From assembly GCA_028715415.1 (NCBI GenBank), contig JAQURX010000005.1:43-64042 (forward strand): DNA of 64,000 nucleotides. The letters run 5' to 3'. Below, in pieces: positions 1-14,009 of this stretch. A model generated the notes under the pieces. The model saw nothing but the letters and a program-made list of their open reading frames with translations, ran no database searches and was not told the origin of the DNA. The stretch comes from Candidatus Omnitrophota bacterium. GTDB lineage: Bacteria; Omnitrophota; Gorgyraeia; Gygaellales; Profunditerraquicolaceae. The stretch's first letter is position 1; every line of letters starts with the position of its first letter. A program made the position numbers and the translations under genes.

Positions 1-1802
1 TCGCTGGTAAAATCGCGGATAATATCTATTTCAGAAAGTTTAACTTTGTATTGAACCATCTCTAAAGTAGTGTCAAGTATTGTGTTTAATTCAAGTAATT
101 CAAAATTCTCATCGCCGCGGCGGGAATATTTCAAAATTCCACGCACAACTTCCCCTCCCTGCACAACATTTGCCTGAATGCGTTCAAGGGCATGGTTTAT
201 GTCTTTAAGCATTTCTTTAACTTCGGGAGTGCATTTTGAAGTGTCTGTATTTACCAGAGTATTAATACTATCTCCTGCGATCAATGAAAGAGCGTAGAAA
301 CGGTTATTTATTTGATGTGATAATCCATCGGCCATGGTCCCGATTGTTGCCATTTTCTCTGCCTGTCCGATTTGCTCCTGCATTTCTTTTGTTTCAGCAT
401 AGAACTGCGCGTTCTCAATTGCAAGCGCTGCCTGGCTTGCAAGCACTTGGAATACATTAAGGTCGTCAATTGTAAAAATCTCTCCTGAAATTTTATCTCC
501 TAAAACAAAAAATCCCATGAATTTATCTTCCAGAAAGCTCGGGATAATTACCGAAGCGTCAAGCAGATGCATTTTTTCTTCTAATATCTTAAAAGTTACT
601 TCATTGGTGTCTTGGGCTTGGCGTTTAATTTCTTCGTAAACAAGCGGCTCGCGCTTAACCATAATCCATGAAACAAGAGTATTGTCGGAAGAAATTTTCT
701 GAATCGGCACCCTTCCTTTATCCCGGCAAACTTGCAAGACATATTCATCTGCCTGCCGGTCGTAAAGATAGGCCGAGAAATAGGAAATTTTGACGGTTTT
801 GGTCATAATGTGCGCAATTAGGTTAAGGAGTTTGTTTAGGTTGCGCACGCGAGTCATGCCGAGTGAAGCCTGTTTTAAGGTTTGCTGATAGCGTCGTTGC
901 TCTTTAAGCAGGCGGTCCTCTGCTCTTCTTTGGATGTAGATATAAAGGAACGGGCCAACAGTGGCTAAGAGGGTTAACAAGCCAAACGGCACAATCCACC
1001 ATTGTGAACCAAGCATATCAACAAGCCAGCTTTTAAGCCAAATAGTCGCTGCGAAAGGTATGCCGAGAACGAGGGTGTAAACAGCGATAAATACGCCTGC
1101 TCGGGTGATGGCTATGGAAACATCCATAAGTCTATATCTAAACATTGCATAAGCAAAAATAAAAGGATATAGTCCGATAAGAATGTTTGAATAAGGATAA
1201 ACAGGTAATCCAAATATAATATATAAGAACATTCCTTCTGGTCCTAGCCAGCCAATTACTGATCCGATTAAGAAATATTTTAGCTGATTGCTTTGGCTTC
1301 CGTTAGTACTCCCCCTGTAAAGATTGAATATTAGAAAGAAAGTATAAAAGAGGATTAAATTATAAAAAATAATATAATAAATCAGGTAAAGTGGATTAAT
1401 CTTTAGATTTAAAACAAAGAAATAAAATTGATTAAAGGAATATTCTAAAAGAATAAAATCTTTTTTAAAGAAAATTAAGTAAAGAGATAGGATAGTTAAA
1501 ATATAAACTAAAATGATTTGAAATGTTCTACGTTTTGTTTTGGTAAGTATTAGCGCGTAATGAATGAAAAAAGTGCAGGTTAATGTTACTCCTATATGTG
1601 CTATTTTAGTCCAATATAAGGCAATTTCTTTTGAATTAGTAGTTGAAAACTTGTAAGCACCTAAAGCCCAAATTGCACAAGCAACGCAAACCATACCCCA
1701 GACATTAGAAAGGCGCTTATTTTTGCCTTTTGTAAATGTGAAAATAGCAATAAAAGAATTTGTAATTAATGTGAATATACAGGACCAAGCAAATAGGTTC
1801 AT
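1..1802 (-). CDS. Sensor histidine kinase, N-terminal portion (multi-TM membrane domain + GAF-like + HisKA H-box); C-terminal ATPase lies beyond the window edge
   Basis: Manual reverse translation from ATG at 1802 gives an open frame to position 1. N-terminus is hydrophobic and helix-rich (MNLFAWSCIFTLITNSFIAIF..., IGLYPFIFAYAMF...). It is followed by a GAF-like region and the H-box IGTMADGLSHQINNRFYALS. Not in the ORF track because the stop is outside the window. Confidence 0.65.
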   Translation of the reverse strand, partial: MNLFAWSCIFTLITNSFIAIFTFTKGKNKRLSNVWGMVCVACAIWALGAYKFSTTNSKEIALYWTKIAHIGVTLTCTFFIHYALILTKTKRRTFQIILVYILTILSLYLIFFKKDFILLEYSFNQFYFFVLNLKINPLYLIYYIIFYNLILFYTFFLIFNLYRGSTNGSQSNQLKYFLIGSVIGWLGPEGMFLYIIFGLPVYPYSNILIGLYPFIFAYAMFRYRLMDVSIAITRAGVFIAVYTLVLGIPFAATIWLKSWLVDMLGSQWWIVPFGLLTLLATVGPFLYIYIQRRAEDRLLKEQRRYQQTLKQASLGMTRVRNLNKLLNLIAHIMTKTVKISYFSAYLYDRQADEYVLQVCRDKGRVPIQKISSDNTLVSWIMVKREPLVYEEIKRQAQDTNEVTFKILEEKMHLLDASVIIPSFLEDKFMGFFVLGDKISGEIFTIDDLNVFQVLASQAALAIENAQFYAETKEMQEQIGQAEKMATIGTMADGLSHQINNRFYALSLIAGDSINTLVNTDTSKCTPEVKEMLKDINHALERIQANVVQGGEVVRGILKYSRRGDENFELLELNTILDTTLEMVQYKVKLSEIDIIRDFTS

Positions 1803-1808
1803 TTTTAG

Positions 1809-3245
1809 TTATAATTTATCACTAAACGTACTTAAAATATTTTTTGCCGTAATTCTACCAGAAACAGCTACTGTTGAAATCCCTCCTTGTCCTGCCCCTC
1901 TAGTGCACCAATGACCTGCAAGATAAAGATTTTTTACTGAAGTTTTTTGCGGAATTAAATTGCCCTTAGTTTGATTTTTTGTAGAAGCCCACCCAAAAGC
2001 AGCTCCATTCCTATTTAAAGTGTATCTATGGAAAGTACAAGGAGTGGCTGTTTCAATTAAATCGATATTTTCTTTGAGGTCGTCCACTATCCTATTAGAA
2101 ATGTCTATTAGTTTGTTTGTTAATTGACCTCTTTTTTGTTTCCAAAAATTCTGATTTTCAAAAGTAGCCATTGTAAATATTTCAATAGTATTTTTTTGAG
2201 ATTTAACTAAAGACTTGTCTTTTGAAGAAGGAAAAGACACTAATAAGCCACTAATTATATTTTCTTTTAAGTTGGTTCTTAAATTCTTGTAACAATTTTC
2301 AATATTGTTTTCTGAAAAATACCAAATATTAGAGCAGTTGTTAGAGGTCTCTTTTAGGTCTTTTTTTATTCCCAAGTAGACTGCAAACACTGAATTTGAA
2401 GGCTTAAGTCTATCTACCGTTTTTCTTTCCTTAGTTTTGGTTTTAATTAATTTCTTAAAAGTTAAGGTAGCATCACAAGCAGAAACTGTTCTTTTAGAAT
2501 AAATCTTTTCTTTGGATACCAACTCTACTCCTATAGCAATGTTATCTTTAACTAAGATTTTAATGACTTCTTTTGAAAGAATAATTTCTCCCCCAAGTGA
2601 TTTAAATCTTTTTACGAATGCTTCAGTAAAATCTTGCATTCCTCCTCTTGGATAGTATCCCGGGTCTAGTATGAATTCATTAAAGAATACAATAGCGATG
2701 ATAGCAGGAATTTTACTTGGTGGTAAACCCATATTGCCTAATAAAAGCAATCCAATTGATGATTTTAAATTAATATCCTTAAAGAAATAATCAAGCAAAT
2801 CTTTTGTGCTTAAGTTTTTAGTCGCTTTAAATTGAAGAAAAATTTCTTTTTTAGAAATGAACTTAAAAAAACGTTCAATATTATTTTTTTCTTTTGGAAA
2901 ACTTTTTTTAAATTCATTAATTGTGTCAAAATAATTTTTTCTAATGTAAGTAATTGAATCAGGTAGGATTATTTTATCAGCCGGATCAAATTGATTAAAT
3001 TTTATTATATTGGTTAGATCGAGTTCTTTAATAATTTGGTTTAGCGATCCATGTTTTATCCCGCCAATATAGTGGATAGATGTGTCAAATTTATAACCTT
3101 TTCGCGTGAAAGAAGTGCAATAGCCACCTGCCATTGAGTGTTTTTCAACAATTAACACTTTCAACCCAGCTTTAGCAAGATAACACCCGCAAGTAAGGCC
3201 CCCGATTCCCGCTCCAATTATTACTACATCGTATTTGTTTTTCAT
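1809..3245 (-). CDS. FAD-dependent oxidoreductase, phytoene desaturase (CrtI)/amine-oxidase family
   Basis: N-terminal dinucleotide fold DVVIIGAGIGGLTCGCYLAKAGLKVLIVEK and C-terminal YLAGHWCTRGAGQGGISTVAVSGRITA typical of the CrtI family; 478 aa. Confidence 0.7.
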   Translation of the reverse strand: MKNKYDVVIIGAGIGGLTCGCYLAKAGLKVLIVEKHSMAGGYCTSFTRKGYKFDTSIHYIGGIKHGSLNQIIKELDLTNIIKFNQFDPADKIILPDSITYIRKNYFDTINEFKKSFPKEKNNIERFFKFISKKEIFLQFKATKNLSTKDLLDYFFKDINLKSSIGLLLLGNMGLPPSKIPAIIAIVFFNEFILDPGYYPRGGMQDFTEAFVKRFKSLGGEIILSKEVIKILVKDNIAIGVELVSKEKIYSKRTVSACDATLTFKKLIKTKTKERKTVDRLKPSNSVFAVYLGIKKDLKETSNNCSNIWYFSENNIENCYKNLRTNLKENIISGLLVSFPSSKDKSLVKSQKNTIEIFTMATFENQNFWKQKRGQLTNKLIDISNRIVDDLKENIDLIETATPCTFHRYTLNRNGAAFGWASTKNQTKGNLIPQKTSVKNLYLAGHWCTRGAGQGGISTVAVSGRITAKNILSTFSDKL

Positions 3246-3847
3246 TTTATATGTTTAACTGCTTCTATGCTATTTTTGCGAATAGAACGTTTGCCTTTTT
3301 CCGCTGGATAACCAAAGGTCAGAATTGCTATTAATTCTTTATCGGTTTTAAGTAGTTTATTAATTCCTTCTTTGCAAAATAGAGGAGTGTCAAGCCAGCA
3401 GGAGCCAATTCCACAAGATTCAGCACCAAGAATCATATTTTGGATGGCCGCAGAAATTGCGCTAAATTCAGCCTTCTTGATTATGCCTGAAAACCTTGAG
3501 TAAATTTCTTTAAATCTATTTTTCATTTTATCCATATCTCCGGAATTATATACTGCAATTGTAACAGGAGCTGACTTAATTATATTTGATGCGGAGTGAA
3601 GTAAAATATTAACTCCTGCTCCGGAATTCTTGGATTTTTTCAAAACGATTTCCGATAGTTGTTTTTTTATCGATTTATTTGTTATTACTACAAAAAACCA
3701 AGGTTGGATTCTTAGGAAGCTTGGAACTGACGGCCCCCAGATCCCCGCCTCAATAATCTTATCCAAGATTTTCTTAGGGATGGATTTGTTTTTATATTTT
3801 CTTACTGTCGCGCGCTCTTTGATAAGTTTGAGTACATCAGTTTTCAT
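3242..3847 (-). CDS. Nitroreductase-family flavoprotein
   Basis: 201 aa; ATVRKYKNKSIPKKILDKIIEAGIWGPS N-terminal nitroreductase signature; 4-nt ATGA overlap with the downstream gene suggests translational coupling. Confidence 0.65.
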   Translation of the reverse strand: MKTDVLKLIKERATVRKYKNKSIPKKILDKIIEAGIWGPSVPSFLRIQPWFFVVITNKSIKKQLSEIVLKKSKNSGAGVNILLHSASNIIKSAPVTIAVYNSGDMDKMKNRFKEIYSRFSGIIKKAEFSAISAAIQNMILGAESCGIGSCWLDTPLFCKEGINKLLKTDKELIAILTFGYPAEKGKRSIRKNSIEAVKHIK

Positions 3848-3873: not shown

Positions 3874-5133
3874 TTAAATTTTCTTAGCAAACCATTTTGT
3901 CATTGCTATTAGTGGAAGCATTGGCGGCAGGCCCGGAGCAAATGGCAATACACTGGCATCGCAGACAAAAAGATTCTTTAGTTTTGTTTCTAAGTTGTTA
4001 TCTACAACTTTTCCAATAGCCGCAGTTCCACCCGGATGCGCGCCTTTTAATTTTGTGACAAATATGTTCTTTGGGTCAACTCCGCATTCAACAAGAATTG
4101 TTTTGGCAATATCTCTTCCTTTTTTTAGTTTTCTTAGGTCGTTTTCTGTAGGGGCTTTGGATATTGTGCCATCAGGATAAACTTTTCCAATAGAATCGTC
4201 ATTAATCTTTGTCATGATTCCGATTAATTTTCTTCTTTTGAAAATGTTTAGGTAGTCTTTTGGCTCTAATCCGGAGAATAAACCGATGCAATTAGGGTCT
4301 ACAAATGGCGACAATACAAATCCTTCGGTTTTGTGGAATTTAGTACAAACTACAGACATTGATAATTCTTTTGCCTGTGTAGAATCTTTTGCAACTCCAT
4401 AAGTCATATGAAACAAATCTACAAAAAGATTATCTCCAGCTTCAATCCCTGAATTTTGTAGAATTATTGGAGTTCCTATGCCTCCTGCGGAAAGGATGAT
4501 TTTGTCAGCAAAATACTTCTTTCCATTCTTTCCTTCTACTCCAGTGGCTTTCCCGCTTTCTTCAATAATCCTTTTAACTGAGAATCTAGTAATTAAATCA
4601 ATGCCTAGGTGTTTGATTTCCTCCCAGCATTTTTTTGCCGACCATTTTATGCCAAATTTGCACCCTTCAGAGCAATGTCCGCAGTCAAGGCATTTTCCCG
4701 TAATACTAAACTTAGGCATAGGGAACATCTCATAGCCAAGTTTATTCGCAGCATCCATTATCCTGTGCGAAGTTTTACCAATTTCAAGGCCGCTATCTCT
4801 GACAAAACATTCTTTTTTCGCCTCGGCAATTTCATCTTTGAAGTCAATGCTAAGTTGGTTGTATTCTTTGTCGGTGAAATCAACCGCGTTTCCGCAGCTA
4901 ACAATGCTTGTGCCTCCAACGCCGAAAACCCTAAAAATCGTAACTCCTTGGATACTTTTTGCAAGAGCAAATTTATCATAAAAAAGCGCAGCAGGAAAAA
5001 CCGAACCCAAGTTATTAATAATCCCGCCTTTTTCTAAAAGCAATACGGTTTTATTTTTTTTAACTAATTCTTTAGCAAGCACTAATCCGCAAAGCCCGGC
5101 TCCTACAATTATATAATCATATTTTTTTTCCAT
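3874..5133 (-). CDS. Compact GMC-family FAD oxidoreductase with inserted Cys-rich (CxxCxxCxxxC) motif
   Basis: N-terminal DYIIVGAGLCGLVLAKEL...LLEKGG, the central stretch VGGTSIVSCGNAVDF, and C-terminal GAHPGGTAAIGKVVDNNLETKLKNLFVCDASVLPFAPGLPPMLPLIAM match GMC N- and C-domains. An extra CLDCGHCSEGCKFG insertion is present. Only 419 aa. Confidence 0.55.
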   Translation of the reverse strand: MEKKYDYIIVGAGLCGLVLAKELVKKNKTVLLLEKGGIINNLGSVFPAALFYDKFALAKSIQGVTIFRVFGVGGTSIVSCGNAVDFTDKEYNQLSIDFKDEIAEAKKECFVRDSGLEIGKTSHRIMDAANKLGYEMFPMPKFSITGKCLDCGHCSEGCKFGIKWSAKKCWEEIKHLGIDLITRFSVKRIIEESGKATGVEGKNGKKYFADKIILSAGGIGTPIILQNSGIEAGDNLFVDLFHMTYGVAKDSTQAKELSMSVVCTKFHKTEGFVLSPFVDPNCIGLFSGLEPKDYLNIFKRRKLIGIMTKINDDSIGKVYPDGTISKAPTENDLRKLKKGRDIAKTILVECGVDPKNIFVTKLKGAHPGGTAAIGKVVDNNLETKLKNLFVCDASVLPFAPGLPPMLPLIAMTKWFAKKI

Positions 5134-5136
5134 TTT

Positions 5137-6201
5137 TCACCTCTGTTTTCTTAGGAAGTAAGTTAGTATTCTTTCTAAGAGGCTGTTGGTGATATTTGGC
5201 ATAGTAAAGCCACAACTTTTTAGTATCGCATTTGTATCAGTAGAGTCAAGATTTATTTTGAAATTTACCGAAAGGATTGTAGCGCGTAAAATTGCCTGTT
5301 GCGTAGGGGTAAACTTATCGGCAATAAATTCTTCCAAGCTTGTAATCTTGGGTTTTTTAAAGTTTGCCAGTTTAGCTGCAGTATTAATTATTGTTTCTAT
5401 TGGAACTAAATCTGTTGGGATAGGATGGAATGTCTTGTTTTTTTCTTTTGTGGTGTTTGCTAATACGTAAATCGCGTTTGCTGTTAGGTCAATCGGCACC
5501 AAGCTTAGGCGGGCGTCTTTAATCGGCAGAGTATCAAACAATTCAATCCTGCACAGGTTAATAAATTGATAGACGTGTTTAAATTGGAATGTTTTTCCTT
5601 CTATAGAATCTCCCATGATCATAGAAGGCCTAAATATATCAACCCAAAGCCCTTTTTTACGGAATTCTACCACAATTTTCTCTGCTTCAAACTTTGTTTT
5701 TTCGTAATTTGTATCAAACCCTTGTCCGACATCCAGATCCTTTTCGGTAAATTTATTATGATAATTACCGTAAACATAAGCTGTGCTGATGTGGTTGATT
5801 TTCTTGAGTAAGCCATTTTTTGCAAAACTATCGCTTAAATCAAGTATTCTTTTGGTGCCTGTAACATTTATATTGGTAATTTCATTTATTGGGCGGTTTA
5901 AATCTGTGATTGCGGCGCTATGATATATTTCTTCAACAGAATCCCGTAATTCCTGAAGCGTTTGATTACTCAACGCCAAGTTATCTTTACCGACATCTCC
6001 TTCTAAAATAACTAAATTATCGGGTTGAAATTTAGTATCCCAGAATTTTAACACTTCTAAGATTCTATTTTGTGAGGTTTTTTCTTTTGAACTTCTGGAA
6101 AGCGCAAAAACTTTATGGTTGTTCTCTAAGAATATTTTTAAGAGGTAGGAGCCAAGCAGCCCTGTTCCACCGGTGAGAAAAATTGTTTTTTGAGAGTTCA
6201 T
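5137..6201 (-). CDS. SDR-superfamily thioester reductase (R-domain / fatty acyl reductase-like) protein
   Basis: IFLTGGTGLLGSYLL...ALSRS...HSAA...NVTGT...YEKTK pattern matches the thioester-reductase / male-sterility NAD-binding family. ATG at 6201 (MNSQK) preferred over the TTG-extended track start at 6228. Confidence 0.6.
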   Translation of the reverse strand: MNSQKTIFLTGGTGLLGSYLLKIFLENNHKVFALSRSSKEKTSQNRILEVLKFWDTKFQPDNLVILEGDVGKDNLALSNQTLQELRDSVEEIYHSAAITDLNRPINEITNINVTGTKRILDLSDSFAKNGLLKKINHISTAYVYGNYHNKFTEKDLDVGQGFDTNYEKTKFEAEKIVVEFRKKGLWVDIFRPSMIMGDSIEGKTFQFKHVYQFINLCRIELFDTLPIKDARLSLVPIDLTANAIYVLANTTKEKNKTFHPIPTDLVPIETIINTAAKLANFKKPKITSLEEFIADKFTPTQQAILRATILSVNFKINLDSTDTNAILKSCGFTMPNITNSLLERILTYFLRKQR

Positions 6202-6211
6202 GAAATCGTTT

Positions 6212-7420
6212 TTATCCCGTTTTTCCAAAGACTATGCAGCAGTTGTTGCCGCCGAAGGCAAAGGCGTTGTTGAGTGCTGTGTTAATTTTAAGTTTTCTTG
6301 CTGTGTTTGGTACGCAGTCAATGTCGCATTCAGGGTCAGGTTCAGTAAAATTGATTGTCGGAGGCAAGACTCCTTCTTTAATCGCCATGCAGCATGCAGC
6401 TGCTTCAATGGCACTCGCAGCCCCCATGCAGTGGCCAAGCATTGATTTACTTGAGCTAACAGGTAGTTTTCTTTCTCCGAAAACTTCTTTTATGGCAGTA
6501 GATTCTTCTTTGTCATTTTGAGTTGTTCCTGTGCCATGGGCATTGATATAGTCAATATCATCCGGCTTAAGCCCGGAGTCGTTTATTGCTTTCTCCATTG
6601 CTTTTCTAATCCCTCTTCTTGCCGGGATAGTCATATGATGAGCATCGCAAGATAAGCCGGCTCCGAGAATCTCCGCGTATATGGGAGCTTTTCTTTCAAT
6701 AGCTTTTTCTAAGGGCTCTAGAATAAGAATGCCTGCGCCTTCCCCCAGAAGCATCCCTTTCCTGTTCTTGTCAAATGGGGCGCAAATATCAGGCGCCATC
6801 GCGTATAATTTCTGGAATCCTTGGTATGCAATCCTTGATAGTGCCTCAGCGCCTCCCGCAATCGCTAAATCTACCTGTCCGGTTTTGATTAAATCAAAGC
6901 CATAGCTTAGGCTATAATTTCCCGCAGAACAGGCATTGGGGATTAAAAGATTAGCCCCTTTTGTTTTAAAGAAATATCCGGTGTTTCTTGCAATTGAAGG
7001 AGAGAAAATATTAAGTAGGAATTTATTTGTCAGGCTGTCAGGGTCATTTTCCAAAATCATGTGTGATGACAGGTCTATAGTATTTCCTTCAGGAATAGTT
7101 ACGCCAATAACAAATGCCGGCTCTGTTTTTCTGATTGACGGGATGGGGATTTTTGCGTCTTTTAATGCAAGTTTTGTCGCGGCAATTGAAAAAACTGAAG
7201 CTCGCCCCATAAATTTCAGCATTTGTTTGGGGACAAAATCTTCGGGATTAAAGTTTTTTACTTCTCCCCCGTTTTTGCGGGTAAATTTGGAGGTGTCAAA
7301 CAAATCAACTTTGCTTATTCCGGACTTTCCTAAGATTAAATTCTTCCAAAAATCTTCTATTCCTATCCCAATTGAGGAAACAATTCCTAATCCGGTTACC
7401 ACAACTCTTCTATTCATCAT
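6212..7420 (-). CDS. fabF: Beta-ketoacyl-ACP synthase II-like condensing enzyme (intact Cys-His-His triad)
   Basis: Motifs PNACSAGNYSL (Cys), YINAHGTGTTQND (His) and KSMLGHCMGAAS (His). Start set at the MMNRR ATGs (7420/7417), because the track's MTPLI extension lies inside a repeat element. Confidence 0.8.
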   Translation of the reverse strand: MMNRRVVVTGLGIVSSIGIGIEDFWKNLILGKSGISKVDLFDTSKFTRKNGGEVKNFNPEDFVPKQMLKFMGRASVFSIAATKLALKDAKIPIPSIRKTEPAFVIGVTIPEGNTIDLSSHMILENDPDSLTNKFLLNIFSPSIARNTGYFFKTKGANLLIPNACSAGNYSLSYGFDLIKTGQVDLAIAGGAEALSRIAYQGFQKLYAMAPDICAPFDKNRKGMLLGEGAGILILEPLEKAIERKAPIYAEILGAGLSCDAHHMTIPARRGIRKAMEKAINDSGLKPDDIDYINAHGTGTTQNDKEESTAIKEVFGERKLPVSSSKSMLGHCMGAASAIEAAACCMAIKEGVLPPTINFTEPDPECDIDCVPNTARKLKINTALNNAFAFGGNNCCIVFGKTG

Positions 7421-7429
7421 AATTAATGG

Positions 7430-7494
7430 TGTCATTCCCGCGAAAGCGGGAATCTACGCTATTTTCTGGATCTTTGCTTTCGCAGGGATGACAA
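7430..7494. repeat. Palindromic repeat unit A (hairpin H1 + inverted diverged copy H2; tgtcat...atgaca termini)
   Basis: tgtcattcccgcGAAAgcgggaatctacg is a perfect 8-bp stem with a GAAA loop. The second arm ctggatctttgcTTTCgcagggatgacaa is a degenerate inverted copy. Copies recur at 16.5 kb and 52.3 kb. Confidence 0.8.
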
Positions 7495-7566: not shown

Positions 7567-8016
7567 TTATTCTTTTGGTTTGATTCCAAAGACGATGTTA
7601 GCTTCAACGACTGTTTCGTTATCAACTAATGCGCAGGCTTTGACAATTCCGGCGTTGCCAAGGATTTTCTCACCTTTTATCTTTAAAATTAACTGATCTC
7701 CGGGCCGCACCGGCTTTAAGAATTTAGATTCAACTCTACCTAAAAAGTATGTCGGGTGTTTTTCTGCGATTTCAGGTTTAAGTGCAGCAAAAAGAAGTAT
7801 GCTGGCCTGCGCAAGCGCTTCAATGATTACAACCCCCGGCAGGATAGGATTCCCCGGAAAGTGCCCCTGAAAAAAATAATCATTCATAGTGACATTTTTT
7901 AAGCAAGTAATTTCTCTTGAAGGCGCATTTATTTCAAGGACAGAATCAACAAAAAGAAAAGGGTATTTCTGCGGCAAGATTGATTGGATTTTATTTATAT
8001 CCCAGATAGCAGGCAT
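7567..8016 (-). CDS. fabZ: 3-hydroxyacyl-ACP dehydratase FabZ-like (hot-dog fold)
   Basis: FFQGHFPGNPILPGVVIIEALAQ active-site motif; 149 aa. Confidence 0.8.
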   Translation of the reverse strand: MPAIWDINKIQSILPQKYPFLFVDSVLEINAPSREITCLKNVTMNDYFFQGHFPGNPILPGVVIIEALAQASILLFAALKPEIAEKHPTYFLGRVESKFLKPVRPGDQLILKIKGEKILGNAGIVKACALVDNETVVEANIVFGIKPKE

Positions 8017-8017
8017 A

Positions 8018-8272
8018 TTATTTTTCTAGTAATGGCTGAAGGACTTTGTAAACATCGCCAAGGCTTCTTAAAGTAGGAATTTTCTCTTCAGGCACAACTA
8101 CCTTGTATTTCTTTTCAATGCTTGCGATAATTTCAAGCGCCATCATGCTGTCAATACCTAAGTCTTCTGAAAACTTAACATTTTCTAAAAGTTCTTTTTC
8201 TTCAACTTCGGTAATTTCAGCGACTAGTTTTTTTACCTCAAGCTTGATTTCCTCAAAATTCTTTTTAGCCAT
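8018..8272 (-). CDS. acpP: Acyl carrier protein
   Basis: 84 aa, phosphopantetheine attachment motif DLGIDSMMALEI. Confidence 0.85.
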   Translation of the reverse strand: MAKKNFEEIKLEVKKLVAEITEVEEKELLENVKFSEDLGIDSMMALEIIASIEKKYKVVVPEEKIPTLRSLGDVYKVLQPLLEK

Positions 8273-8289: not shown

Positions 8290-9036
8290 TCAGATTGCCA
8301 AGCCACCGTCGATTTTAATTGCTTCGCCGGTAATGTAATTAGCTTTTTCCGATGCAAGAAAAACGCACAAGTTTGCCACTTCTTCGGCTTCGCCTAATCG
8401 TTTCACTGGTATGATTTTTAGAATTTCGGTTTTCATTTCTTCTCTCATCCCGCTTACCATATCTGTATTGATAAAGCCCGGACAGACAGCATTTACGGTA
8501 ATATTATATGCCGCTACTTCCTTTGCTAAAGCTTTTGTAAAGCCTATTATCCCTGCTTTTGAAGCGCTATAATTTGTCTGGCGCGGTAATCCGGTTATCC
8601 CGCTTACCGAGCTCATATTAATTATCTTGCCTGATTTTTGTTTCAACATTGTTGTTATGCAGGCCCGGCTCATGTTAAACGTCCCGCCGAGATTGGTTTC
8701 TAAAACATCTTTCCAGTCTTCCTGAGCCATCATTAACAATGCTTTATCTTTGGTAATACCTGCGTTATTGATGAGTATATCTATTTTTTGGAATTTTTCC
8801 ATAGTTTTTTCAATTACTTTCCGGCATTGCTCAAGGTCTCTGACATCTGTTTGTAAGCTGAGGCATTCAATATTTAATCCTTCAATTTCTTTTTTAAGTT
8901 TTTCCGCTTCCTCTATATTTTTATTATAAGTAAATACTACACTTGCTCCTGCTTTAGCAAGCGCAACACAGCAAGCCCTGCCGATTCCGCGAGAGCCGCC
9001 GGTAACAATCGCAATCTTTCCTTTTAATTCATTCAT
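8290..9036 (-). CDS. fabG: 3-oxoacyl-ACP reductase (SDR, FabG-like)
   Basis: KGKIAIVTGGSRGIGRA, NNAG and SxnY..K motifs. Start moved to MNELKGK (9036) to remove a 56-nt overlap of the track ORF with the upstream gene. Confidence 0.8.
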   Translation of the reverse strand: MNELKGKIAIVTGGSRGIGRACCVALAKAGASVVFTYNKNIEEAEKLKKEIEGLNIECLSLQTDVRDLEQCRKVIEKTMEKFQKIDILINNAGITKDKALLMMAQEDWKDVLETNLGGTFNMSRACITTMLKQKSGKIINMSSVSGITGLPRQTNYSASKAGIIGFTKALAKEVAAYNITVNAVCPGFINTDMVSGMREEMKTEILKIIPVKRLGEAEEVANLCVFLASEKANYITGEAIKIDGGLAI

Positions 9037-9037
9037 T

Positions 9038-10276
9038 TTAATTTTCCGTAAATTTTTCGAGGATACAGGCGCTATTGTATCCTCCTGGGCCAAAAGAAGT
9101 AATTAATGCAATCTTTACGTCTTTTTTCTCCCCTTTGTTAGGAACACAGTTGATTTCGCACTCCGGGTCTTTTTCTTCATAGTTTATTGTCGGTGGAATA
9201 ATTCCACGCTGCATTGCTCCTATGCAAGAAGCAACCTGAAGAGCACCTGAAGCTGCAAAAGTTTCACCAATCATGGACTTAATTGAACTAACTGGGATGT
9301 CTCTTAATTCTTTTCCAAAGATTTTATTAAGGACTTTTACCTCTGTTTTATCCAAATCCTGAGTTGAATTAGCGCAGCTTGAGATATAGTCTATATCTTT
9401 AATGTCGATTCCCGCTTCTTTAATTGCTTGAATTATTGCGATCTCAAGGCCTTCTCCTTGCGGGTTAATCGTTCCCATCTTACTCGCGTCAAAATAATTA
9501 CAAACACTTTTAATTTTAGCGTAAATATTAGCGCCTCGTTCCCTTGCCCTATCCTTTTCTTCTAGAGAAAAAACACAGGCAGCTTCTCCTAGTATAGGGC
9601 CATTTCTTTTTTTGTCAAAGGGGCAGCTTAATTCTTTTCCGTTTAACCCGGCCATGTAGCCAAGTTTTTGTAAGCCCATAAATAATGATGAGGTTAAAGT
9701 TTCGACACCTGCAGAGAAAATAATTTCTGCTTTGTTTGTTTTCAGGGCGTCTATGGAGTATTTCAACGCGGCAAGGCCCGAACAAAACCCCGTGCTCACT
9801 GTTGCATTAAAGCCTTGTATATTAAAACGGATTGAAACTTGAGAAGAAGCTGCGTTCATTACTGTTGAGGGGAAAAGCGCCGGGCTTGCGAATTCTATGC
9901 CTTCGGTAAATACTTCTTTGTCAAATTCCGTAATAGACCATAAATGCGGAAAGGTTGTCCCTGTGCAAACGCCGAATTTATCCGTATTCTCATCTGTTAT
10001 TTCAATTTTAGCATCGTCAATGGCAAGTTTTGCCGCTGATATTAAAAATAATGCGCTTCTATCTAAATTCCTCAAACCCTTAGCGCCTAAGATTTCTTTT
10101 GGATCAAAGTTTTTAGCTTCGCAGGCAGATTTTACTTTAAATTCATCTGTGTTGAAGAAAGAAATCTGTGTTGATGAATTTAAGCCGTTTTCAAGAGCCT
10201 GCCAGAACTCAGCCTTACCGATTCCGTTCGGGGCAATTACCCCAATTCCTGTAATAACAGTTTCAAAGTTTTTCAT
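9038..10276 (-). CDS. Ketosynthase-like protein with Cys retained but both catalytic His replaced (C-C-E; chain-length-factor / KS0-like)
   Basis: Full thiolase/KAS fold (MKNFETVITGIGVIAPNGIG..., VSTGFCSGLAALKY) but YISSCANST replaces YINAHGTGT and KSMIGETFAASG replaces KSMxGHxxGAAG. Confidence 0.7.
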   Translation of the reverse strand: MKNFETVITGIGVIAPNGIGKAEFWQALENGLNSSTQISFFNTDEFKVKSACEAKNFDPKEILGAKGLRNLDRSALFLISAAKLAIDDAKIEITDENTDKFGVCTGTTFPHLWSITEFDKEVFTEGIEFASPALFPSTVMNAASSQVSIRFNIQGFNATVSTGFCSGLAALKYSIDALKTNKAEIIFSAGVETLTSSLFMGLQKLGYMAGLNGKELSCPFDKKRNGPILGEAACVFSLEEKDRARERGANIYAKIKSVCNYFDASKMGTINPQGEGLEIAIIQAIKEAGIDIKDIDYISSCANSTQDLDKTEVKVLNKIFGKELRDIPVSSIKSMIGETFAASGALQVASCIGAMQRGIIPPTINYEEKDPECEINCVPNKGEKKDVKIALITSFGPGGYNSACILEKFTEN

Positions 10277-10279
10277 AGT

Positions 10280-11299
10280 TTATCTTACCGGTGCATGCGG
10301 CGCCCATACCTCAAAGCCATGTTGGACCGCAATATCAGAAATTTCTTCCATTTTGTCAGAACACGAACTTTCTCCTAAATAATGATGGAATGATTTCTCT
10401 TCAAAAGTTAAAAGCATTGTTTCTGCCATAGAGGCATTAATCACGCCTTTGGGAAGCCCTAAGTCAATATTAATATCTTCCGGAAACGGAACTTTTACTA
10501 AGGTGCCGCTAATTACCGGAAGCCCTTTGCAGATGTTATTTTCTGATTTTGAATTTAAAGTAGCATCGCAAAAGATCGGCTTTTTTTCTAATTCGGAAAC
10601 CATTTTTTCTAAATTCACTTTTGAAAAATCCAGATTAATGATGATATCAGCCTCTTTAATAGCTTTATTTATATCTGGTTCTACGCAAATCATGGTATTG
10701 TTATTGTGTAAAATTGTTTCTTCTATTCTTTGTAATATTTTAGGATCATCTCCTTGCAGGATAATTTTGTTTATGCAGCTTGAAAATCGTTCCGAGCAAA
10801 GTTTGCCTATTGAGCAGTCCGCACCGATTATGACAAGGGTTAAATTATTTGTTTTTAAGCCTCTTTCTCTGCAGGTCCTATAAATAGTTTCATAAATTGC
10901 CCAAGCGGAATAATATTTTCCGTTTGTTACTGGAAGAGGAACCTTTTCTTCAATTTTTTGATGATTTTTTTCTGCCAGGTATCCTGCATATCCGCTCAAG
11001 CCTAAAAGGCTTGCTTTAAGCTGCTTTGCAATGTTACCTGCTGAGTAAATCGTGTTTAGAACGAATTCTTCATCAAGGTTTGGAGCCTCGTTGTCTAATA
11101 ATGGGCTAATGATAACATGGCCTTGTATTTCTTTTCCTTGAGTTGATTGGATACGTTTTAGATGAATTACTTTGCAAGGATAACTTCCTTTGGAGAACAT
11201 TTTCGCAAAAAAACCGGGCATGCGTTTAAATGCAGGCCAGAATCCTTTAGCTTCATCCAGATTTGTCGGGTTTACTACAAAAGCAAAGCTTTTTATCAT
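10280..11299 (-). CDS. Rossmann-fold protein resembling long-chain acyl-ACP reductase (AAR) / shikimate-DH-like family
   Basis: By recollection, similar to cyanobacterial AAR. N-terminal GKEIQGHVIISPLLDNE compares to AAR GKVIHGRYIESCFLPE. NAD fold LVIIGADCSIGKLCSERF. C-terminal ASMAETMLLTFEEKSF...EEISDIAVQHGFEV compares to AAR ACFAEAMLLEFEGW...EAIGEASVRHGFQP. Confidence 0.45.
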   Translation of the reverse strand: MIKSFAFVVNPTNLDEAKGFWPAFKRMPGFFAKMFSKGSYPCKVIHLKRIQSTQGKEIQGHVIISPLLDNEAPNLDEEFVLNTIYSAGNIAKQLKASLLGLSGYAGYLAEKNHQKIEEKVPLPVTNGKYYSAWAIYETIYRTCRERGLKTNNLTLVIIGADCSIGKLCSERFSSCINKIILQGDDPKILQRIEETILHNNNTMICVEPDINKAIKEADIIINLDFSKVNLEKMVSELEKKPIFCDATLNSKSENNICKGLPVISGTLVKVPFPEDINIDLGLPKGVINASMAETMLLTFEEKSFHHYLGESSCSDKMEEISDIAVQHGFEVWAPHAPVR

Positions 11300-11309: not shown

Positions 11310-11534
11310 TTAGTTTTCCTCTAAAGATGATTTTCTGCGGTCTCTTTTTGAATAATTATATTCTGATTTCTCTTTAATCCATCTTTCAATATGTTTTTTG
11401 TGGAATCTCCAGTCTGTCCCAATTTTAAAAGCCGGGAGTTTCCCTTCACGAGCGTATTTTTGTACTGTTAAAAGGTGGACATTTAAGTATTCTGCTACAT
11501 CTTTCGCTGTCCAAATTTCTTTATTCTGTGACAT
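11310..11534 (-). CDS. Helix-turn-helix DNA-binding protein, excisionase/MerR-like family
   Basis: WTAKDVAEYLNVHLLTVQKYAREGKLPAFKIGTDWRFHKKHIERW; ATG at 11534 preceded by AGTGAGGT Shine-Dalgarno 7 nt upstream. Confidence 0.6.
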   Translation of the reverse strand: MSQNKEIWTAKDVAEYLNVHLLTVQKYAREGKLPAFKIGTDWRFHKKHIERWIKEKSEYNYSKRDRRKSSLEEN

Positions 11535-11570
11535 ATTTAACCTCACTTTAGCATATTTACACTTGCTATA

Positions 11571-11599
11571 AATATACTATCAAAACCATGACTTGTCAA
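11571..11599 (-). promoter_or_regulatory. Sigma70-like promoter (TTGACA -17- TATATT) driving the HTH/biosynthetic cluster
   Basis: Minus-strand read: cTTTATTGACAagtcatggttttgatagTATATTtatagcAagtg; -35 at 11594-11599, -10 at 11571-11576; about 30 nt upstream of the HTH start. Confidence 0.45.
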
Positions 11600-11690: not shown

Positions 11691-11921
11691 TTAATCTATA
11701 ATTGCTAAAGTGTCTCCAACGTTAACAGTATCTCCTTCCTGAAACATGATATCGGAGATAGTTCCGGTAGCTGGACTGGGAAGATTGAATGTAGCTTTAT
11801 CGGTTGCAAATTCAACAAGGTCGTCTTTTTCGCTTACCTTGTCTCCTAATTTAAAAAACCAGTAGGAAAGGGTTGCTTTTGTGATTCCTTCTCCTAATTC
11901 CGGAAGAACTACTTTAACCAT
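11691..11921 (-). CDS. Standalone lipoyl (biotinyl/lipoyl attachment) domain protein, E2-type
   Basis: About 76 aa with LPELGEGITKATL...EFATDKATFNLPSPATGTI lipoyl-lysine motif; ATG at 11921 has a strong AGGGAGGA Shine-Dalgarno 6 nt upstream. Confidence 0.7.
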   Translation of the reverse strand: MVKVVLPELGEGITKATLSYWFFKLGDKVSEKDDLVEFATDKATFNLPSPATGTISDIMFQEGDTVNVGDTLAIID

Positions 11922-11973
11922 GGTATCCTCCCTGGGCACCAGCCCGCCCTGTTTCATCCGATAGAAACAGGGG

Positions 11974-12717
11974 TCATAGTATTGGGGGTAAGCGTCTTCT
12001 TAGCCCCAGTTTATTAATTGATGTTGTTGTTAAACTTGCAGTTGAAAAAACCGCATTAAATTCCGGAAAAATCTCACAGTTGGGTTCTTCAGGCAGCGTA
12101 TTGTTAAATTTAGCAGCAATTTTATCTTTTAATTCTTTGATTTGCATGGAAGCTCCTAATTCAGCTTCTAAACAAGTCATTTTAATATCCATTCCACACG
12201 GCCTGATTAAATTAAAGTTTTCTAAATCAAATTTCTTAATATTGATACTAAGGCCGTGGAAACTTATCCAGTTTTTAATTGATATCCCGATTGAGGCGAT
12301 TTTCTTATCTTGAACCCATACGCCGGTTAATCCGGGACGCCTTACTCCGTTAATTCCCATTTCACAAAGTATATCCATGATAGTTTCTTCAAGGTATCTT
12401 AAGAAAAGGTGAATGTCTTTTTTGAAATATTTAAGGCTGAATATGGGATAAACTGTCAGCTGCCCGGGGCCATGATAGGTTATATCTCCTCCGCGCGTTG
12501 ATTCAATAACTTGAATTTTTTTTGCTTTTACTTCTTCCGGAGGAGCTACTAAATTTTGCCTGGAGCCTGCCCTGCCGATTGTAATCACCGGATTATGCTG
12601 GCAAAAAATAAGTGCAAGCGGATAATCTTCATTTTTTACAGCTGTGTGGGTTTGTGTTTGAAAGGCTAAAGCCTTATTGTAGTCAATCAAGCCTAAATCA
12701 AAGATTTTAACTTGCAT
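11974..12717 (-). CDS. lipB: Lipoyl(octanoyl) transferase LipB
   Basis: IFCQHNPVITIGRAG...GGDITYHGPGQLTVYPI...KIASIGISIKNWISFHG. Confidence 0.8.
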   Translation of the reverse strand: MQVKIFDLGLIDYNKALAFQTQTHTAVKNEDYPLALIFCQHNPVITIGRAGSRQNLVAPPEEVKAKKIQVIESTRGGDITYHGPGQLTVYPIFSLKYFKKDIHLFLRYLEETIMDILCEMGINGVRRPGLTGVWVQDKKIASIGISIKNWISFHGLSINIKKFDLENFNLIRPCGMDIKMTCLEAELGASMQIKELKDKIAAKFNNTLPEEPNCEIFPEFNAVFSTASLTTTSINKLGLRRRLPPIL

Positions 12718-12719
12718 TT

Positions 12720-14009
12720 TTATTTGATTGCGTCGTGGATTGCTTCTGACACTGTCGGGTGTGCAAAGATTATATTCTTTAAATTTGCTGTTGTGAAATG
12801 ATTAGAAATTGCTAGTGCTAAAATTCCAATTAGCTCTGTTGAGCGAGGCCCGATTAATGAGCTTCCTAAGATTTCTTTTGATTGCTTATGGGAGATAATC
12901 TTTATAAAGCCTTCTGTTTCATCTAAGATTCGCGCCATGCCGTTTCCAAGGAAATCAAATCTATCAATATTAATTTCAATCTTTTTCTCTTTGGCTTCAG
13001 CTTCTTTTAGCCCTACGCTTGCAATTTCAGGATCTGTAAAAATACAATTAGGCACAGTCGTGTTATCCGCTTTTTGCAAATTTCCTTCGGTAACAGCGTT
13101 TGAAGCGGCGAGAATCCCTTGATAAGAAGCATAGTGGGCCAACATGATTTTTCCTGTGCAATCTCCGCAAGCAAAAACTTTCGGATTACTTGTCTGTAGG
13201 TAGTCATTAATAATAACTTTACCTTTTTGCATTTTGATTCCCAATTCTTCAAGTCCAAGGCCGTAGGTATCAGGAGTTCTGCCTACGCAAACCAAAATTT
13301 TACTAATTCCTTTAAGGTCCAAATCTTTAGCATCAGTATTAGTACAGACTTTAATCCCCTTTTTCTTAAAGATCGTTTCTAACTTTTTGGCAATCTCAGC
13401 GTCTTCTTCGGGTAACAGAAAAGGCATCTTTTCAACTAGCGTGACTTTTACTCCTAAATTGTTAAATAAACTGGCGAATTCACAGCCGATTACTCCTCCT
13501 CCGATAATTAAGAGTGATGCTGGAATCTCGTTTAGATTAAGCAAATCGTCGCTTGAAAGCACATTCTTACCGTCAAATTTGAAAATCGGCAATTCCATCG
13601 GTTTTGATCCGGTAGCAATGATTAATTTCTTAGTTTCAATTATCTTTTCATTTACTTTAATTCTTTCAGGGGATAATAATTGAGCCTCCCCATTTAATAA
13701 ATCAATCCCCTGGAGCATAAATTGCATTCCTTGGGTGAGCTGTTGGACTATTTTATTTTTTCTTTCCTGGATTTTTGCGAAATTAAAGCTACAGTTGGTT
13801 AAATCTACTCCGAATATGGAAGATTTTTTGGCAAGAGAATATATTTTTGCGCTTTGGATTAAAGCTTTAGTGGGAATGCAGCCGCAGTTAAGGCAGGTGC
13901 CTCCTATTTTTGATTTTTCAATGAGGCATACTTTAGCCCCAAGTTTTTTTGCTTTGATGCTTGCGTTAAACCCAGCCCATCCTGCGCCGATTACAACAAT
14001 GTCATACAT
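12720..14009 (-). CDS. lpdA: Dihydrolipoyl dehydrogenase-family pyridine nucleotide-disulfide oxidoreductase (E3)
   Basis: YDIVVIGAGWAGFNAS, redox-active GGTCLNCGCIPTKAL, C-terminal HPTVSE dimer-interface motif. Confidence 0.75.
   Translation of the reverse strand: MYDIVVIGAGWAGFNASIKAKKLGAKVCLIEKSKIGGTCLNCGCIPTKALIQSAKIYSLAKKSSIFGVDLTNCSFNFAKIQERKNKIVQQLTQGMQFMLQGIDLLNGEAQLLSPERIKVNEKIIETKKLIIATGSKPMELPIFKFDGKNVLSSDDLLNLNEIPASLLIIGGGVIGCEFASLFNNLGVKVTLVEKMPFLLPEEDAEIAKKLETIFKKKGIKVCTNTDAKDLDLKGISKILVCVGRTPDTYGLGLEELGIKMQKGKVIINDYLQTSNPKVFACGDCTGKIMLAHYASYQGILAASNAVTEGNLQKADNTTVPNCIFTDPEIASVGLKEAEAKEKKIEINIDRFDFLGNGMARILDETEGFIKIISHKQSKEILGSSLIGPRSTELIGILALAISNHFTTANLKNIIFAHPTVSEAIHDAIK

Follow-up and report, generated by a model that had tools for sequence, protein, structure and literature searches.

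A Cys-less, probably non-catalytic protein of the acyl-ACP reductase fold in Candidatus Omnitrophota

[quoted passage not shown] In AAR, C294 is strictly conserved, and the C294S mutant does not form the acyl-enzyme intermediate but still binds stearoyl-CoA (Gao et al. 2020, PMC7089970). Neither PigE (PMC8341465) nor TAD (bioRxiv 10.1101/2024.10.28.620694) varies at the equivalent Cys, and GluTR, which is mechanistically similar and possibly related, also relies on a conserved Cys (PMC8341465). The N-domains of the PigE/TamH type (prodigiosin MAP pathway; NF053554; PDB 4PPM) have as substrates the intermediates, ACP or thioester, of a pathway resembling FAS. TAD of PKS/NRPS (CarI; PDB 9E4U) is an AAR-derived domain with a non-canonical function.

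Here we analyze a 64 kb stretch of DNA from Candidatus Omnitrophota (the window), which encodes a 339-aa protein of the AAR fold (10280..11299, minus strand; ORF, homology, and AF2 model). The protein belongs to a Cys-less clade, which we call the W-clade. Searches of the literature on acyl-ACP reductase combined with Omnitrophica or pseudoenzyme, and on COG5322, returned no description of this clade.

Relationship of the 339-aa protein to AAR

The start codon of the ORF is an ATG, and it is correct because the N-terminus, MIKSFAFVVNP, fits the family consensus. The translation is 100% identical to the NCBI entry 'hypothetical protein PHO70_02820' from a Candidatus Omnitrophica MAG. A previous sequence-only reading had noticed the ORF and three AAR-like blocks within it. 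Both are real, and all three blocks align with S. elongatus AAR. In particular, the N-terminal block GKEIQGHVIISPLL aligns with GKVIHGRYIESCFLPE, the Gly-rich block IIGADCSIG with VVGATGDIG, and the C-terminal block AETMLLTFE...EEISDIAVQHGF with AEAMLLEFE...EAIGEASVRHGF.

The proposed homology to AAR is confirmed by profile and structure comparisons. The clade profile matches AAR in hhalign with 99.7% probability and E 3.6e-26 over 316 columns, which cover all three domains. When the AF2 model (pLDDT 83, pTM 0.87) is searched with Foldseek, the top seven matches are all AAR (6JZZ, 6JZY, 6JZU, and 6JZQ among them) with TM 0.77-0.79, the best being 6JZZ (TM 0.79, E 9e-19). The next structural match is TAD (TM 0.66, E 2e-13). 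In sequence searches, the PDB entries of AAR are found by phmmer with E 2e-4 to 1e-3, and TIGR04058, the NCBIfam model of AAR, matches with E 2.8e-12 and 46.6 bits, below its curated cutoff of 449.7. The best match in the sequence libraries is the PigE N-domain model NF053554 (E 1.9e-17; residues 43-330 of the protein), which scores 62.9 bits (cutoff 850) and is covered at positions 46-334 of 837. The 339-aa protein is a member of the AAR superfamily (AAR / PigE-N / TAD fold).

Cyanobacterial AAR (S. elongatus orf1594; PDB 6JZQ/6JZU/6JZY/6JZZ; TIGR04058) and the 339-aa protein have the three-domain fold and the length in common, and they share the T-x-G motif, the A-E-x-M-L-L helix, the HGF motif, and the N-terminal GKxIxG block. 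However, they are only about 19-21% identical, Cys294 is replaced by Ser, and the GATGDIG loop is degenerate.

The W-clade and its former active site

The W-clade is marked by an invariant Trp in a T-A-W-S motif, the loss of the Cys, and a C-terminus of the form QHGFEVWxPxAP. A further mark is genomic: the gene follows an HTH_17 gene and opens an island whose other boundary is a HisKA_7TM kinase. The 339-aa protein fits this definition, with W133, S290, QHGFEVWAPHAP, an HTH_17 gene (11310-11546), and a kinase gene (1-1808). The clade is monophyletic and comprises ~150 sequence clusters, nearly all from Candidatus Omnitrophota, and the 339-aa protein lies inside a 147-member crown clade. In the tree, two basal members have the Cys and the Gly, and the sister clade retains the Cys. 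Clade sequences were compared with Cys-retaining sequences in two sets, 131 versus 74 and 152 versus 109. Trp133 (codon 10901..10903, minus strand, by translation) defines the clade: 152/152 clade members have W at the position, whereas 87/109 Cys-retaining relatives have A, and AAR has Tyr136. Some clade members bear the JGI automatic annotation 'fatty aldehyde-generating acyl-ACP reductase'.

Ser290 (codon 10430..10432, minus strand; translation and alignments) stands where AAR has its catalytic Cys294, NASMAET of the 339-aa protein being aligned to FACFAEA of AAR. The catalytic Cys, whose conservation the sequence-only reading had proposed to check, is not conserved in the clade either. The column is composed of S58 A36 P12 C5 R3 D3 Q3 and rarer residues (n=131), corresponding to about 45% Ser, 27% Ala, 10% Pro, and only about 3% Cys, and Cys occurs at 0/27 genomic W-clade loci.

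The cofactor site is relaxed as well. The dinucleotide-recognition loop reads GADCSIG (10805..10825, minus strand, by translation), compared with 162-GATGDIG-168 in AAR, so that the second loop Gly (AAR G165) is Cys in the 339-aa protein. Gly is found there in 15/131 sequences of the W-clade versus 70/74 Cys-retaining relatives. For G162 the corresponding counts are 89/131 versus 74/74, for Arg at R189 they are 11/131 versus 62/74, and His7 is kept in 33/131 versus 71/74. D244, P248, G99, and G265 are near-invariant in the Cys-retaining set (n=109) but relaxed in the W-clade (n=152); by our reading, the Asp...Pro loop (D244...P248) is the counterpart of the TAD nicotinamide-ribose loop. In the 2'-phosphate pocket of the 339-aa protein, D184 stands at the position of R189, I188 at that of R193, and a gap at that of R314. 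In the comparison with AAR, His7, R189/R193/R314, Y247, and P248 are not conserved. Given that its own G159 and G165, two of the three loop glycines, are kept, the 339-aa protein may bind nucleotide weakly.

With Ser290 in place of Cys294 and cofactor motifs relaxed across the clade, the acyl-ACP reductase activity that the sequence-only reading had invoked as a supply of fatty aldehyde is not upheld. NADPH-dependent reduction of acyl-ACP/CoA to aldehyde by the 339-aa protein is predicted, from its residues, to be absent.

The W-clade is still under purifying selection. Its alignment contains 17 invariant columns. The text of the AAR paper gives only M21, Y23, Y26, and M279 as residues of the acyl tunnel (PMC7089970), and conservation was measured as domain-level entropy in place of a listing of tunnel residues. 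By this measure, the C-terminal domain is more conserved in the W-clade (1.56) than in active relatives (1.81). The clade-specific invariants (W133, E137, L167, E318, E330, and P334) gather in the C-terminal helix and tail and at W133/E137. Around the former active site, T125-x-G127, A292-E293, and H327-G328-F329 are invariant.

These features set the protein apart from each described type. A long-chain acyl-[ACP] reductase (TIGR04058 equivalog, EC 1.2.1.80) would reach the model cutoff and have Cys294, the loop and pocket residues, and ADO as a partner, whereas the 339-aa protein has none of these. In PigE, Cys296 is retained and a class III PLP aminotransferase is joined to the domain, whereas the 339-aa protein, although of the same fold family, stands alone and lacks the Cys, and thus is not of the PigE type; no aminotransferase is encoded in the operon. 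TAD has an invariant Cys2238, binds NAD(H), and is part of a megasynthase, whereas the W-clade has neither the Cys nor NAD(H)-binding features.

The closest relatives outside the clade (25-31% identity) are AAR-like proteins of Firmicutes/Actinobacteria, which carry 'shikimate dehydrogenase' annotations, Smithella-type GATNAIG proteins, which are the sister group of the W-clade, and Omnitrophota SRPBCC-AAR fusions. The Cys is present in all three types, as for the most part are the Gly loop and His7, and the clade Trp is missing; none of the three is encoded in the window. The Firmicutes/Actinobacteria and Smithella types lie in housekeeping contexts with no link to HTH_17, but one GATGAIG protein (locus L035) heads an HTH_17 island. 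Weak matches to PF01488, together with automatic 'shikimate dehydrogenase' names, are found in some relatives.

The island in the window and at related loci

The genes of the island all lie on the minus strand. The leader gene, separated by 10 nt from the AAR-like gene downstream, encodes an HTH_17 / excisionase-family DNA-binding protein (11310..11546; TIGR01764 E 7.6e-13; PF12728). Upstream of it, a consensus scan alone detects a putative sigma-70-like promoter, TTGACA-17-TATATT (11571..11599; 11/12). Directly downstream of the AAR-like gene is a CLF-like KS (9038..10276; Pfam ketoacyl-synt N+C) without the Cys-His-His triad, the C/H/H positions being F/C/E in the alignment to the neighbouring KS. 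It is followed by a FabG-like ketoreductase (SDR; 8290..9093; Pfam adh_short_C2 E 1.6e-69), an acyl carrier protein with a DSM motif (8018..8272; NCBIfam ACP models E 1e-13; PP-binding), and a FabZ-like / ApeI-like dehydratase (7567..8016; Pfam FabA E 6e-27; TIGR01750 E 2.7e-43). The next gene encodes an active-type beta-ketoacyl-ACP synthase (6212..7435; TIGR03150 fabF E 5e-122, below cutoff), in which the Cys, His, and His are present (motifs NACSAG, NAHGTGT, and GHCMG).

The three neighbours named by the sequence-only reading are present as claimed. The first is a stand-alone thioester-reductase (R) domain protein (5137..6228; PF07993 E 3e-50; TIGR01746 E 9.5e-43) with intact TGGTGLLG and YEKTK motifs, which is likely the aldehyde/alcohol-forming enzyme of the operon, judging from these motifs. 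The second is a short GMC-family FAD oxidoreductase (3874..5133; GMC_oxred_N/C), which is found again in six related islands (cluster c20). The third, a CrtI-family flavoprotein resembling phytoene desaturase / carotenoid isomerase (1809..3245; PF01593; TIGR02734 crtI_fam E 1e-38), is separated from it by a nitroreductase-family flavoprotein (3242..3847; PF00881 E 2e-27), found again as cluster c51. The suggestion that a fatty aldehyde meets a different fate here may still hold, but its maker would be the R-domain protein.

The island ends at a HisKA_7TM sensor histidine kinase (1..1808), which is cut by the window edge and was recognized by tblastn with the kinases of related loci (594 aa aligned at 55% identity, 1781..9; a single open frame free of stops). 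A CRISPR array, ncRNA, or non-coding region at 1-1808 is ruled out, as there is no Rfam match, there are no significant repeats, and the kinase gene is there.

The locus lies outside the alkane context, as had been supposed. AAR has ADO as a partner, whereas a tblastn scan of all 64 kb of the window finds nothing resembling ADO (E>=2 only), no ADO is among the neighbours at 27 related loci, and the basic helix that binds ADO is not conserved in the 339-aa protein. Elsewhere in the window, tblastn with the whole family and the L003/L005 paralogues detects neither an SRPBCC protein nor a second, catalytically intact paralogue of AAR.

At the related loci, the W-clade gene directly follows the HTH_17 regulator in 20/27 cases; HTH_17 is undetected at 7/27, in part owing to the limits of ORF calling. 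The pair is kept under two upstream contexts, a lipoyl-protein block or a CoaX block, and HTH_17 is much more conserved than the W-clade protein. The kinase forms the downstream boundary at the same place in L001, L003, L005, L007, and L008. The modules downstream of the pair vary: a PlsC-like AT with an SRPBCC-AAR[Cys] fusion at ~12 loci, SRPBCC with an AAR paralogue at 4, and KS/CLF/KR/ACP/DH at 8. Because the W-clade protein is kept beside such different downstream genes, a single dedicated enzymatic partner is disfavoured. The SRPBCC-AAR fusions lie one gene from the W-clade gene in about 12 loci, but an obligate heteromer with the fusion is made less plausible by at least 11/27 loci, the window included, that have no AAR paralogue nearby. 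Island L035 consists of HTH_17, SRPBCC, AAR[Cys] (GATGAIG), GMC, and the kinase, and lacks a W-clade gene. Therefore, the W-clade protein is dispensable to the island, and the case for HTH_17 as its obligate partner is weakened.

Proposed role and alternatives

Since the catalytic Cys and the NADPH-binding motifs are lost, a non-catalytic helper is most likely, rather than an aldehyde-making enzyme. The 339-aa protein is probably a pseudo-reductase of the AAR fold that acts as an acyl-thioester/ACP-binding accessory and is not a source of aldehyde. The W-clade would be derived from Cys-containing thioester reductases. The acyl-accepting Cys was then released from selection, as were no fewer than three separate parts of the NAD(P)H site: the Gly-rich loop, the Arg of the 2'-phosphate pocket, and the Asp...Pro loop. 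The fold as a whole is retained, together with T-x-G and A-E-T-M-L-L around the former active site and the unusually conserved C-terminal domain. Such a protein would bind the acyl chain, the phosphopantetheine arm, or ACP non-covalently, comparable to AAR C294S with stearoyl-CoA. From gene order alone, we infer an accessory role, in which the protein would serve as an adaptor, a gatekeeper, or a sensor to the acyl-ACP-using module that happens to come next. In the window, this module would be the KS/CLF-KR-ACP-DH system, the product of which would be released reductively by the R-domain protein and then modified by the GMC, nitroreductase-like, and CrtI-like flavoenzymes. As Ser outnumbers every other residue at the Cys position and is present here, an acyl-O-Ser intermediate may exist in Ser-bearing members.

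Chain-length factor (KS-beta), other pseudo-enzyme paralogues of type II PKS/FAS, and NmrA-type proteins have no sequence relationship to the W-clade and serve as an analogy only, in that a duplicated enzyme loses its catalytic residues but stays conserved in a non-catalytic capacity, as a partner or regulator. A more specific form of the accessory role, in which the W-clade gates or senses the flow of acyl groups from primary FAS to interchangeable lipid-tailoring modules, maybe as an acyl-ACP-responsive transcription switch with HTH_17, is speculative and rather unlikely.

The alternative that survives best, although we consider it doubtful, is a two-protein switch, in which the W-clade protein is the ligand-sensing partner of HTH_17 and the binding of acyl-ACP or lipid would modulate HTH_17 control of the island. 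NmrA-type Rossmann pseudo-enzymes regulate transcription factors in an analogous manner. The two genes adjoin on the same strand ~10 nt apart behind a promoter-like site, the pair persists across both upstream contexts and the differing downstream modules, HTH_17 is by far the better conserved of the two, and the conserved C-terminal surface is a gain specific to the clade. However, L035 is led by HTH_17 without a W-clade gene, HTH_17 is undetected at the 7 loci mentioned above (partly for reasons of ORF calling), no HTH_17/W-clade fusion proteins are found, and the adjacency is explained equally well if HTH_17 is a plain operon regulator.

It is improbable that the protein is a neo-functionalised enzyme, for example an acyl-ACP thioesterase/acyltransferase that would use Ser290, or a water activated with Glu293 and His327. 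The invariance of T125-x-G127, A292-E293, and H327-G328-F329, the plurality of Ser at the Cys position, and the lack of an obvious thioesterase or loader in KS/CLF-type islands are consistent with such an enzyme. But E293 and HGF are just as invariant in the Cys-retaining reductases, indicating that they are ancestral and not newly recruited. In addition, a catalytic Ser should be invariant, yet Ala and Pro are frequent at this position, and no new clade-specific polar residue adjoins it in sequence.

A working acyl-ACP (thioester) reductase, forming aldehyde either by way of acyl-O-Ser or with hydride passing directly to the ACP thioester and no covalent catalysis, is very unlikely. The homology to AAR and the fold are clear, two of the three loop glycines are kept, the operon is shared with ACP and thioester-handling enzymes, and the JGI label names this activity for some clade members. 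However, the catalytic Cys is missing, its column is unconstrained throughout the clade, several NADPH-contact elements are relaxed, the TIGR04058 score is far below its cutoff, and an intact R-domain reductase is already present in the operon. Oxoesters are poor hydride acceptors. Moreover, acyl-enzyme formation is abolished in AAR C294S (PMC7089970).

Finally, a shikimate/quinate dehydrogenase, a glutamyl-tRNA reductase, or a generic Rossmann enzyme with a spurious likeness to AAR, to which the weak PF01488 matches and automatic names of some relatives might point and which the sequence-only reading had named as possible best matches, is rejected: AAR is the best structural match and aligns across all three domains, the Pfam search of the 339-aa protein returns no Shikimate_DH (PF01488) at E<=1, and AroE, LeuDH, and similar folds reach TM of only 0.31-0.45 (AroE structures 0.32-0.41), compared with 0.79 for AAR.

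The label 'fatty aldehyde-generating acyl-ACP reductase' is probably wrong for a clade of ~150 sequence clusters, and this also bears on the alkane, aldehyde, or fatty-alcohol potential inferred for Omnitrophota MAGs. The W-clade, Cys-less and with an eroded cofactor site, would be the first pseudo-enzyme lineage of the AAR fold. Omnitrophota are uncultured, often ultra-small bacteria. The fixed spot of the W-clade gene between the HTH_17 regulator and the 7TM sensor kinase, heading swappable lipid/polyketide-like modules, makes the locus a tractable one and a handle on the unusual lipids of Omnitrophota and on their control. If the W-clade indeed gates or senses acyl flow, it would represent a new regulatory/adaptor use of the AAR fold and would provide a handle on the membrane-lipid or polyene chemistry of an uncultured phylum.

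Fold and catalytic residue of the AAR-like protein

The 339-aa protein encoded at 10280..11299 (-) in the ORF listing is 100% identical to the NCBI 'hypothetical protein' PHO70_02820 of a Candidatus Omnitrophica MAG, and a Pfam scan of it returns zero domain matches. A PDB sequence search with this query matches only PigE (4PPM) and the acyl-ACP reductase (AAR) of S. elongatus (6JZQ/6JZU/6JZZ). AAR matches a profile of 41 close homologues of the query with 99.7% probability (E 3.6e-26, 316 columns, 21% identity). The best seven Foldseek matches of the AlphaFold2 model of the query (pLDDT 83, pTM 0.87) are AAR chains throughout (E 1e-15 to 1e-18, TM 0.77–0.79), followed by 9E4U, a terminal amidation domain (TAD) of PKS/NRPS (TM 0.66). 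The profile and Foldseek matches bear out the AAR kinship proposed in the sequence-only reading, and the three sequence blocks it cited match AAR as stated. Shikimate dehydrogenase, leucine dehydrogenase, and carbamoyltransferase folds are rejected, with TM scores of just 0.31–0.45 to the model.

The AAR sequence used for alignments is identical to PDB 6JZU_A at 341/341 positions, so the residue numbers are those of the literature. In phmmer, MAFFT, and hhalign alignments alike, Ser290 of the query (NA-S-MAETMLL) is positioned opposite Cys294 of AAR (FA-C-FAEAMLL), and PigE has Cys in this column. The catalytic Cys, whose conservation the sequence-only reading had proposed to check, is thus missing. 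C294 of AAR is strictly conserved and is the key catalytic residue (Gao et al. 2020, PMC7089970); the equivalent residues are conserved in PigE (Cys296, PMC8341465) and invariant in TAD (Cys2238, bioRxiv 10.1101/2024.10.28.620694). Gao et al. chose the C294S substitution because the acyl-enzyme thioester cannot form, and the mutant protein keeps non-covalent binding of stearoyl-CoA (PMC7089970). In addition, the AAR dinucleotide loop 162-GATGDIG-168 reads GADCSIG in the query, and the 2'-phosphate residues R189, R193, and R314 correspond to D, I, and a gap. The query very probably belongs to the AAR superfamily without being a functional acyl-ACP reductase.

Sequence features of the Trp clade

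A word-indexed search with the query finds 65 homologues; when 1.84 billion representatives are searched exhaustively with a profile, 2,965 pass E<=1e-3, among them 677 that also pass E<=1e-30. In a family alignment of 212 sequences drawn from the profile-search matches, 131 have an invariant Trp in common (W133 of the query, motif T-A-W-S); their Cys column contains S58, A36, P12, C5, R3, D3, Q3, G2, F2, and others. Several positions kept in the 74 relatives with Cys and without Trp are relaxed in these 131: G162 (74/74 versus 89/131), G165 (70/74 versus 15/131), His7 (71/74 versus 33/131), and R189 (62/74 versus 11/131). When genomic loci are included, G99, the Gly at AAR position 109, I167, D244, P248, and G265 are near-invariant in 109 Cys sequences and relaxed in 152 Trp sequences. 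D244 and P248 delimit the DGGYP loop, by our reading the putative counterpart of the Asp-Asp-Ser-Gly-cisPro loop of TAD, which contacts the nicotinamide ribose (bioRxiv 10.1101/2024.10.28.620694).

In a neighbour-joining tree, the Trp sequences form a monophyletic clade of 149 tips, the sister group of which is Smithella-type and retains the Cys and GATNAIG. The basal members P0123 and P0142 still have the Cys and the Gly loop, and the Cys is nearly absent from the 147-tip crown.

With 17 invariant columns in 41 sequences at ~40% identity, the Trp clade is still under purifying selection. Compared with active relatives, it varies less in its C-terminal domain (mean entropy 1.56 versus 1.81), which ends in a conserved tail, QHGFEVWxPxAP. 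W133, E137, L167, E318, A321, E330, and P334 are clade-specific invariants. Judged from sequence, drifting catalytic and cofactor sites, a conserved remainder, and a new conserved surface are the signature of a pseudo-enzyme with a putative non-catalytic role.

Gene islands of the Trp clade

In a scan with each GTDB species represented by a single genome, the Trp clade is nearly confined to Candidatus Omnitrophota MAGs, outside which it occurs in a single Margulisiibacteriota MAG and in two MAGs that carry a Planctomycetales label. The Cys is missing in 27/27 non-redundant genomic copies. Neighbouring ORFs were called and clustered around these loci (n=27). An HTH_17/excisionase-family gene lies directly upstream of the Trp-clade gene in 20/27, itself preceded by an Lpd-LipB-lipoyl-protein block or a UvrB-CoaX block. 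Three modules occur downstream: Module I, a PlsC-like acyltransferase and a ~525-aa SRPBCC-AAR fusion retaining the Cys, GGTGDIG, and His7 (~12 loci); Module II, an unfused SRPBCC protein and an AAR paralogue (4 loci); and Module III, KS, CLF-like KS, KR, ACP, and DH (8 loci, the window included). One locus, L026, has Modules I and III together. Genes for a short GMC oxidoreductase often come next (6 loci), as do those for an R-domain reductase (3) and for proteins of nitroreductase-like (3) and CrtI-like type. The island then closes with genes encoding a sensor kinase (HisKA_7TM), a response regulator, and an HD protein. Smithella-type genes occupy other, unrelated contexts without HTH_17.

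The operon of the window is transcribed (-) in the order HTH_17, AAR-fold, CLF-like, KR, ACP, DH, KS, R-domain, three flavoproteins (GMC, nitroreductase-like, CrtI-like), kinase. A promoter-like match (TTGACA-17-TATATT, 11599-11571) precedes the HTH_17 gene (11310-11546, (-)), which lies 10 nt from the AAR-like start. The HTH_17 protein has a sub-threshold match to the MADS anti-phage HTH protein MAD1 (54 bits, cutoff 80), most likely reflecting the shared excisionase-type HTH fold only. Directly downstream of the AAR-like gene, the KS-like, CLF-like protein (9038-10276, (-)) has Phe (with an adjacent Cys), Cys, and Glu in place of the Cys-His-His triad; two apparent pseudo-enzyme paralogues are thus adjacent. 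Between it and its partner, the active-type KS (6212-7435), are FabG-like KR, ACP, and FabZ/ApeI-like DH genes (-). The HisKA_7TM sensor histidine kinase gene (1-1808, (-)) is cut by the window start and runs past it, so this segment seems ORF-free in the ORF listing; the kinase is 55% identical to that closing the equivalent island in locus L008.

The window contains neither a further AAR paralogue nor an SRPBCC gene, and its operon contains no enoyl reductase, thioesterase, or aldehyde-deformylating oxygenase (ADO), the last as the sequence-only reading had noted. Therefore, an aldehyde or alcohol, if any, is most plausibly released by the stand-alone thioester-reductase (R) domain protein (-), which has the motifs TGGTGLLG and YEKTK. 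The earlier idea of a different aldehyde fate may survive, with this enzyme as the source in place of the AAR-like protein.

Cys-retaining relatives occur elsewhere. In Firmicutes (Orenia) and Actinomycetota (L009 9036-9953; L010 8907-9812), the conserved gene order is CoaX, a protein of ~300 aa that has no Pfam domain, AAR-like, GreA, and LysS, which suggests a putative housekeeping thioester reductase paired with the ~300-aa protein. A 304-aa protein beside the Trp-clade gene of L008 (11041-11955) is a candidate relative of the latter. In Omnitrophota, a lipid-binding SRPBCC (Polyketide_cyc) domain is fused to an AAR domain with the Cys (L003 11567-13135; L007 11581-13161; also L013, L016, L024, L026, L028, L029, and L036). 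The usual neighbours of these fusions are a PlsC-like acyltransferase and a GMC oxidoreductase of the short type, and this set looks like an uncharacterised fatty-aldehyde/lipid pathway. The fusions of L020 and L015 lack the Cys (Ala and Ser).

Upstream of the island in the window are genes for an 88-aa stand-alone lipoyl-domain protein with a TDKA lipoyl-lysine motif (11691-11957, (-)), a LipB-like octanoyltransferase (11974-12717, (-)), and a dihydrolipoamide-dehydrogenase-like flavoprotein (12720-14009, (-)), with no adjoining E1 or E2 catalytic genes. Many Omnitrophota loci conserve this block (clusters c4, c10, and c5) immediately before HTH_17. The 88-aa protein could be a free lipoyl carrier, and because LipB uses octanoyl-ACP, the block may be tied to the acyl-ACP island next to it. 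Farther upstream, a PilT/T2SSE-type ATPase gene (16641-17687, (-)) sits between the large (aconitase/LeuC-like, 17703-18956, (-)) and small (LeuD-like, 16026-16526, (-)) subunit genes of an isopropylmalate/homoaconitase-type dehydratase. L003, L004, and L008 have the same layout, which L007 shows in part.

Proposed role of the Trp-clade protein

Acyl thioesters on ACP would be the constant substrate of every downstream module. The AAR fold offers a cleft for phosphopantetheine/nucleotide and an induced, hydrophobic tunnel for the acyl chain, and, as engineered AAR C294S shows (PMC7089970), can hold an unreacted acyl-thioester ligand. We therefore favour a binding accessory: the query would be a non-catalytic acyl-ACP or acyl-chain binder at the island head, acting as adaptor, gatekeeper, or sensor. 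Taken whole, an AAR-fold pseudo-reductase serving as acyl-binding accessory is probably the best explanation; the binding role specifically, which we infer, is tentative, its chances just short of even.

A role as sensor partner of HTH_17 overlaps with this model and is unlikely: locus L035, which has no Trp-clade gene, has HTH_17, SRPBCC, AAR[Cys], GMC, and kinase, and the best reading of HTH_17 is therefore island leader and regulator, not obligate partner. A new enzymatic function, for example as thioesterase or acyltransferase, is somewhat less likely still. A still-working reductase is very improbable, given Ser290 at the Cys294 position and the inability of AAR C294S to form the acyl-enzyme (PMC7089970).

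A literature search over 8 million full texts returns nothing on AAR homologues in Omnitrophica, AAR pseudo-enzymes are undescribed in it, and COG5322 gives nothing relevant. Existing labels are 'hypothetical' (NCBI) and, for some clade members, 'fatty aldehyde-generating acyl-ACP reductase' or 'predicted amino acid dehydrogenase' (JGI). Within the AAR superfamily, the Trp clade is a branch without the Cys and with an eroded cofactor site, and its genomic role is conserved. While its function is one we infer, a tempting functional call is corrected, and a coherent, testable family and locus are defined.
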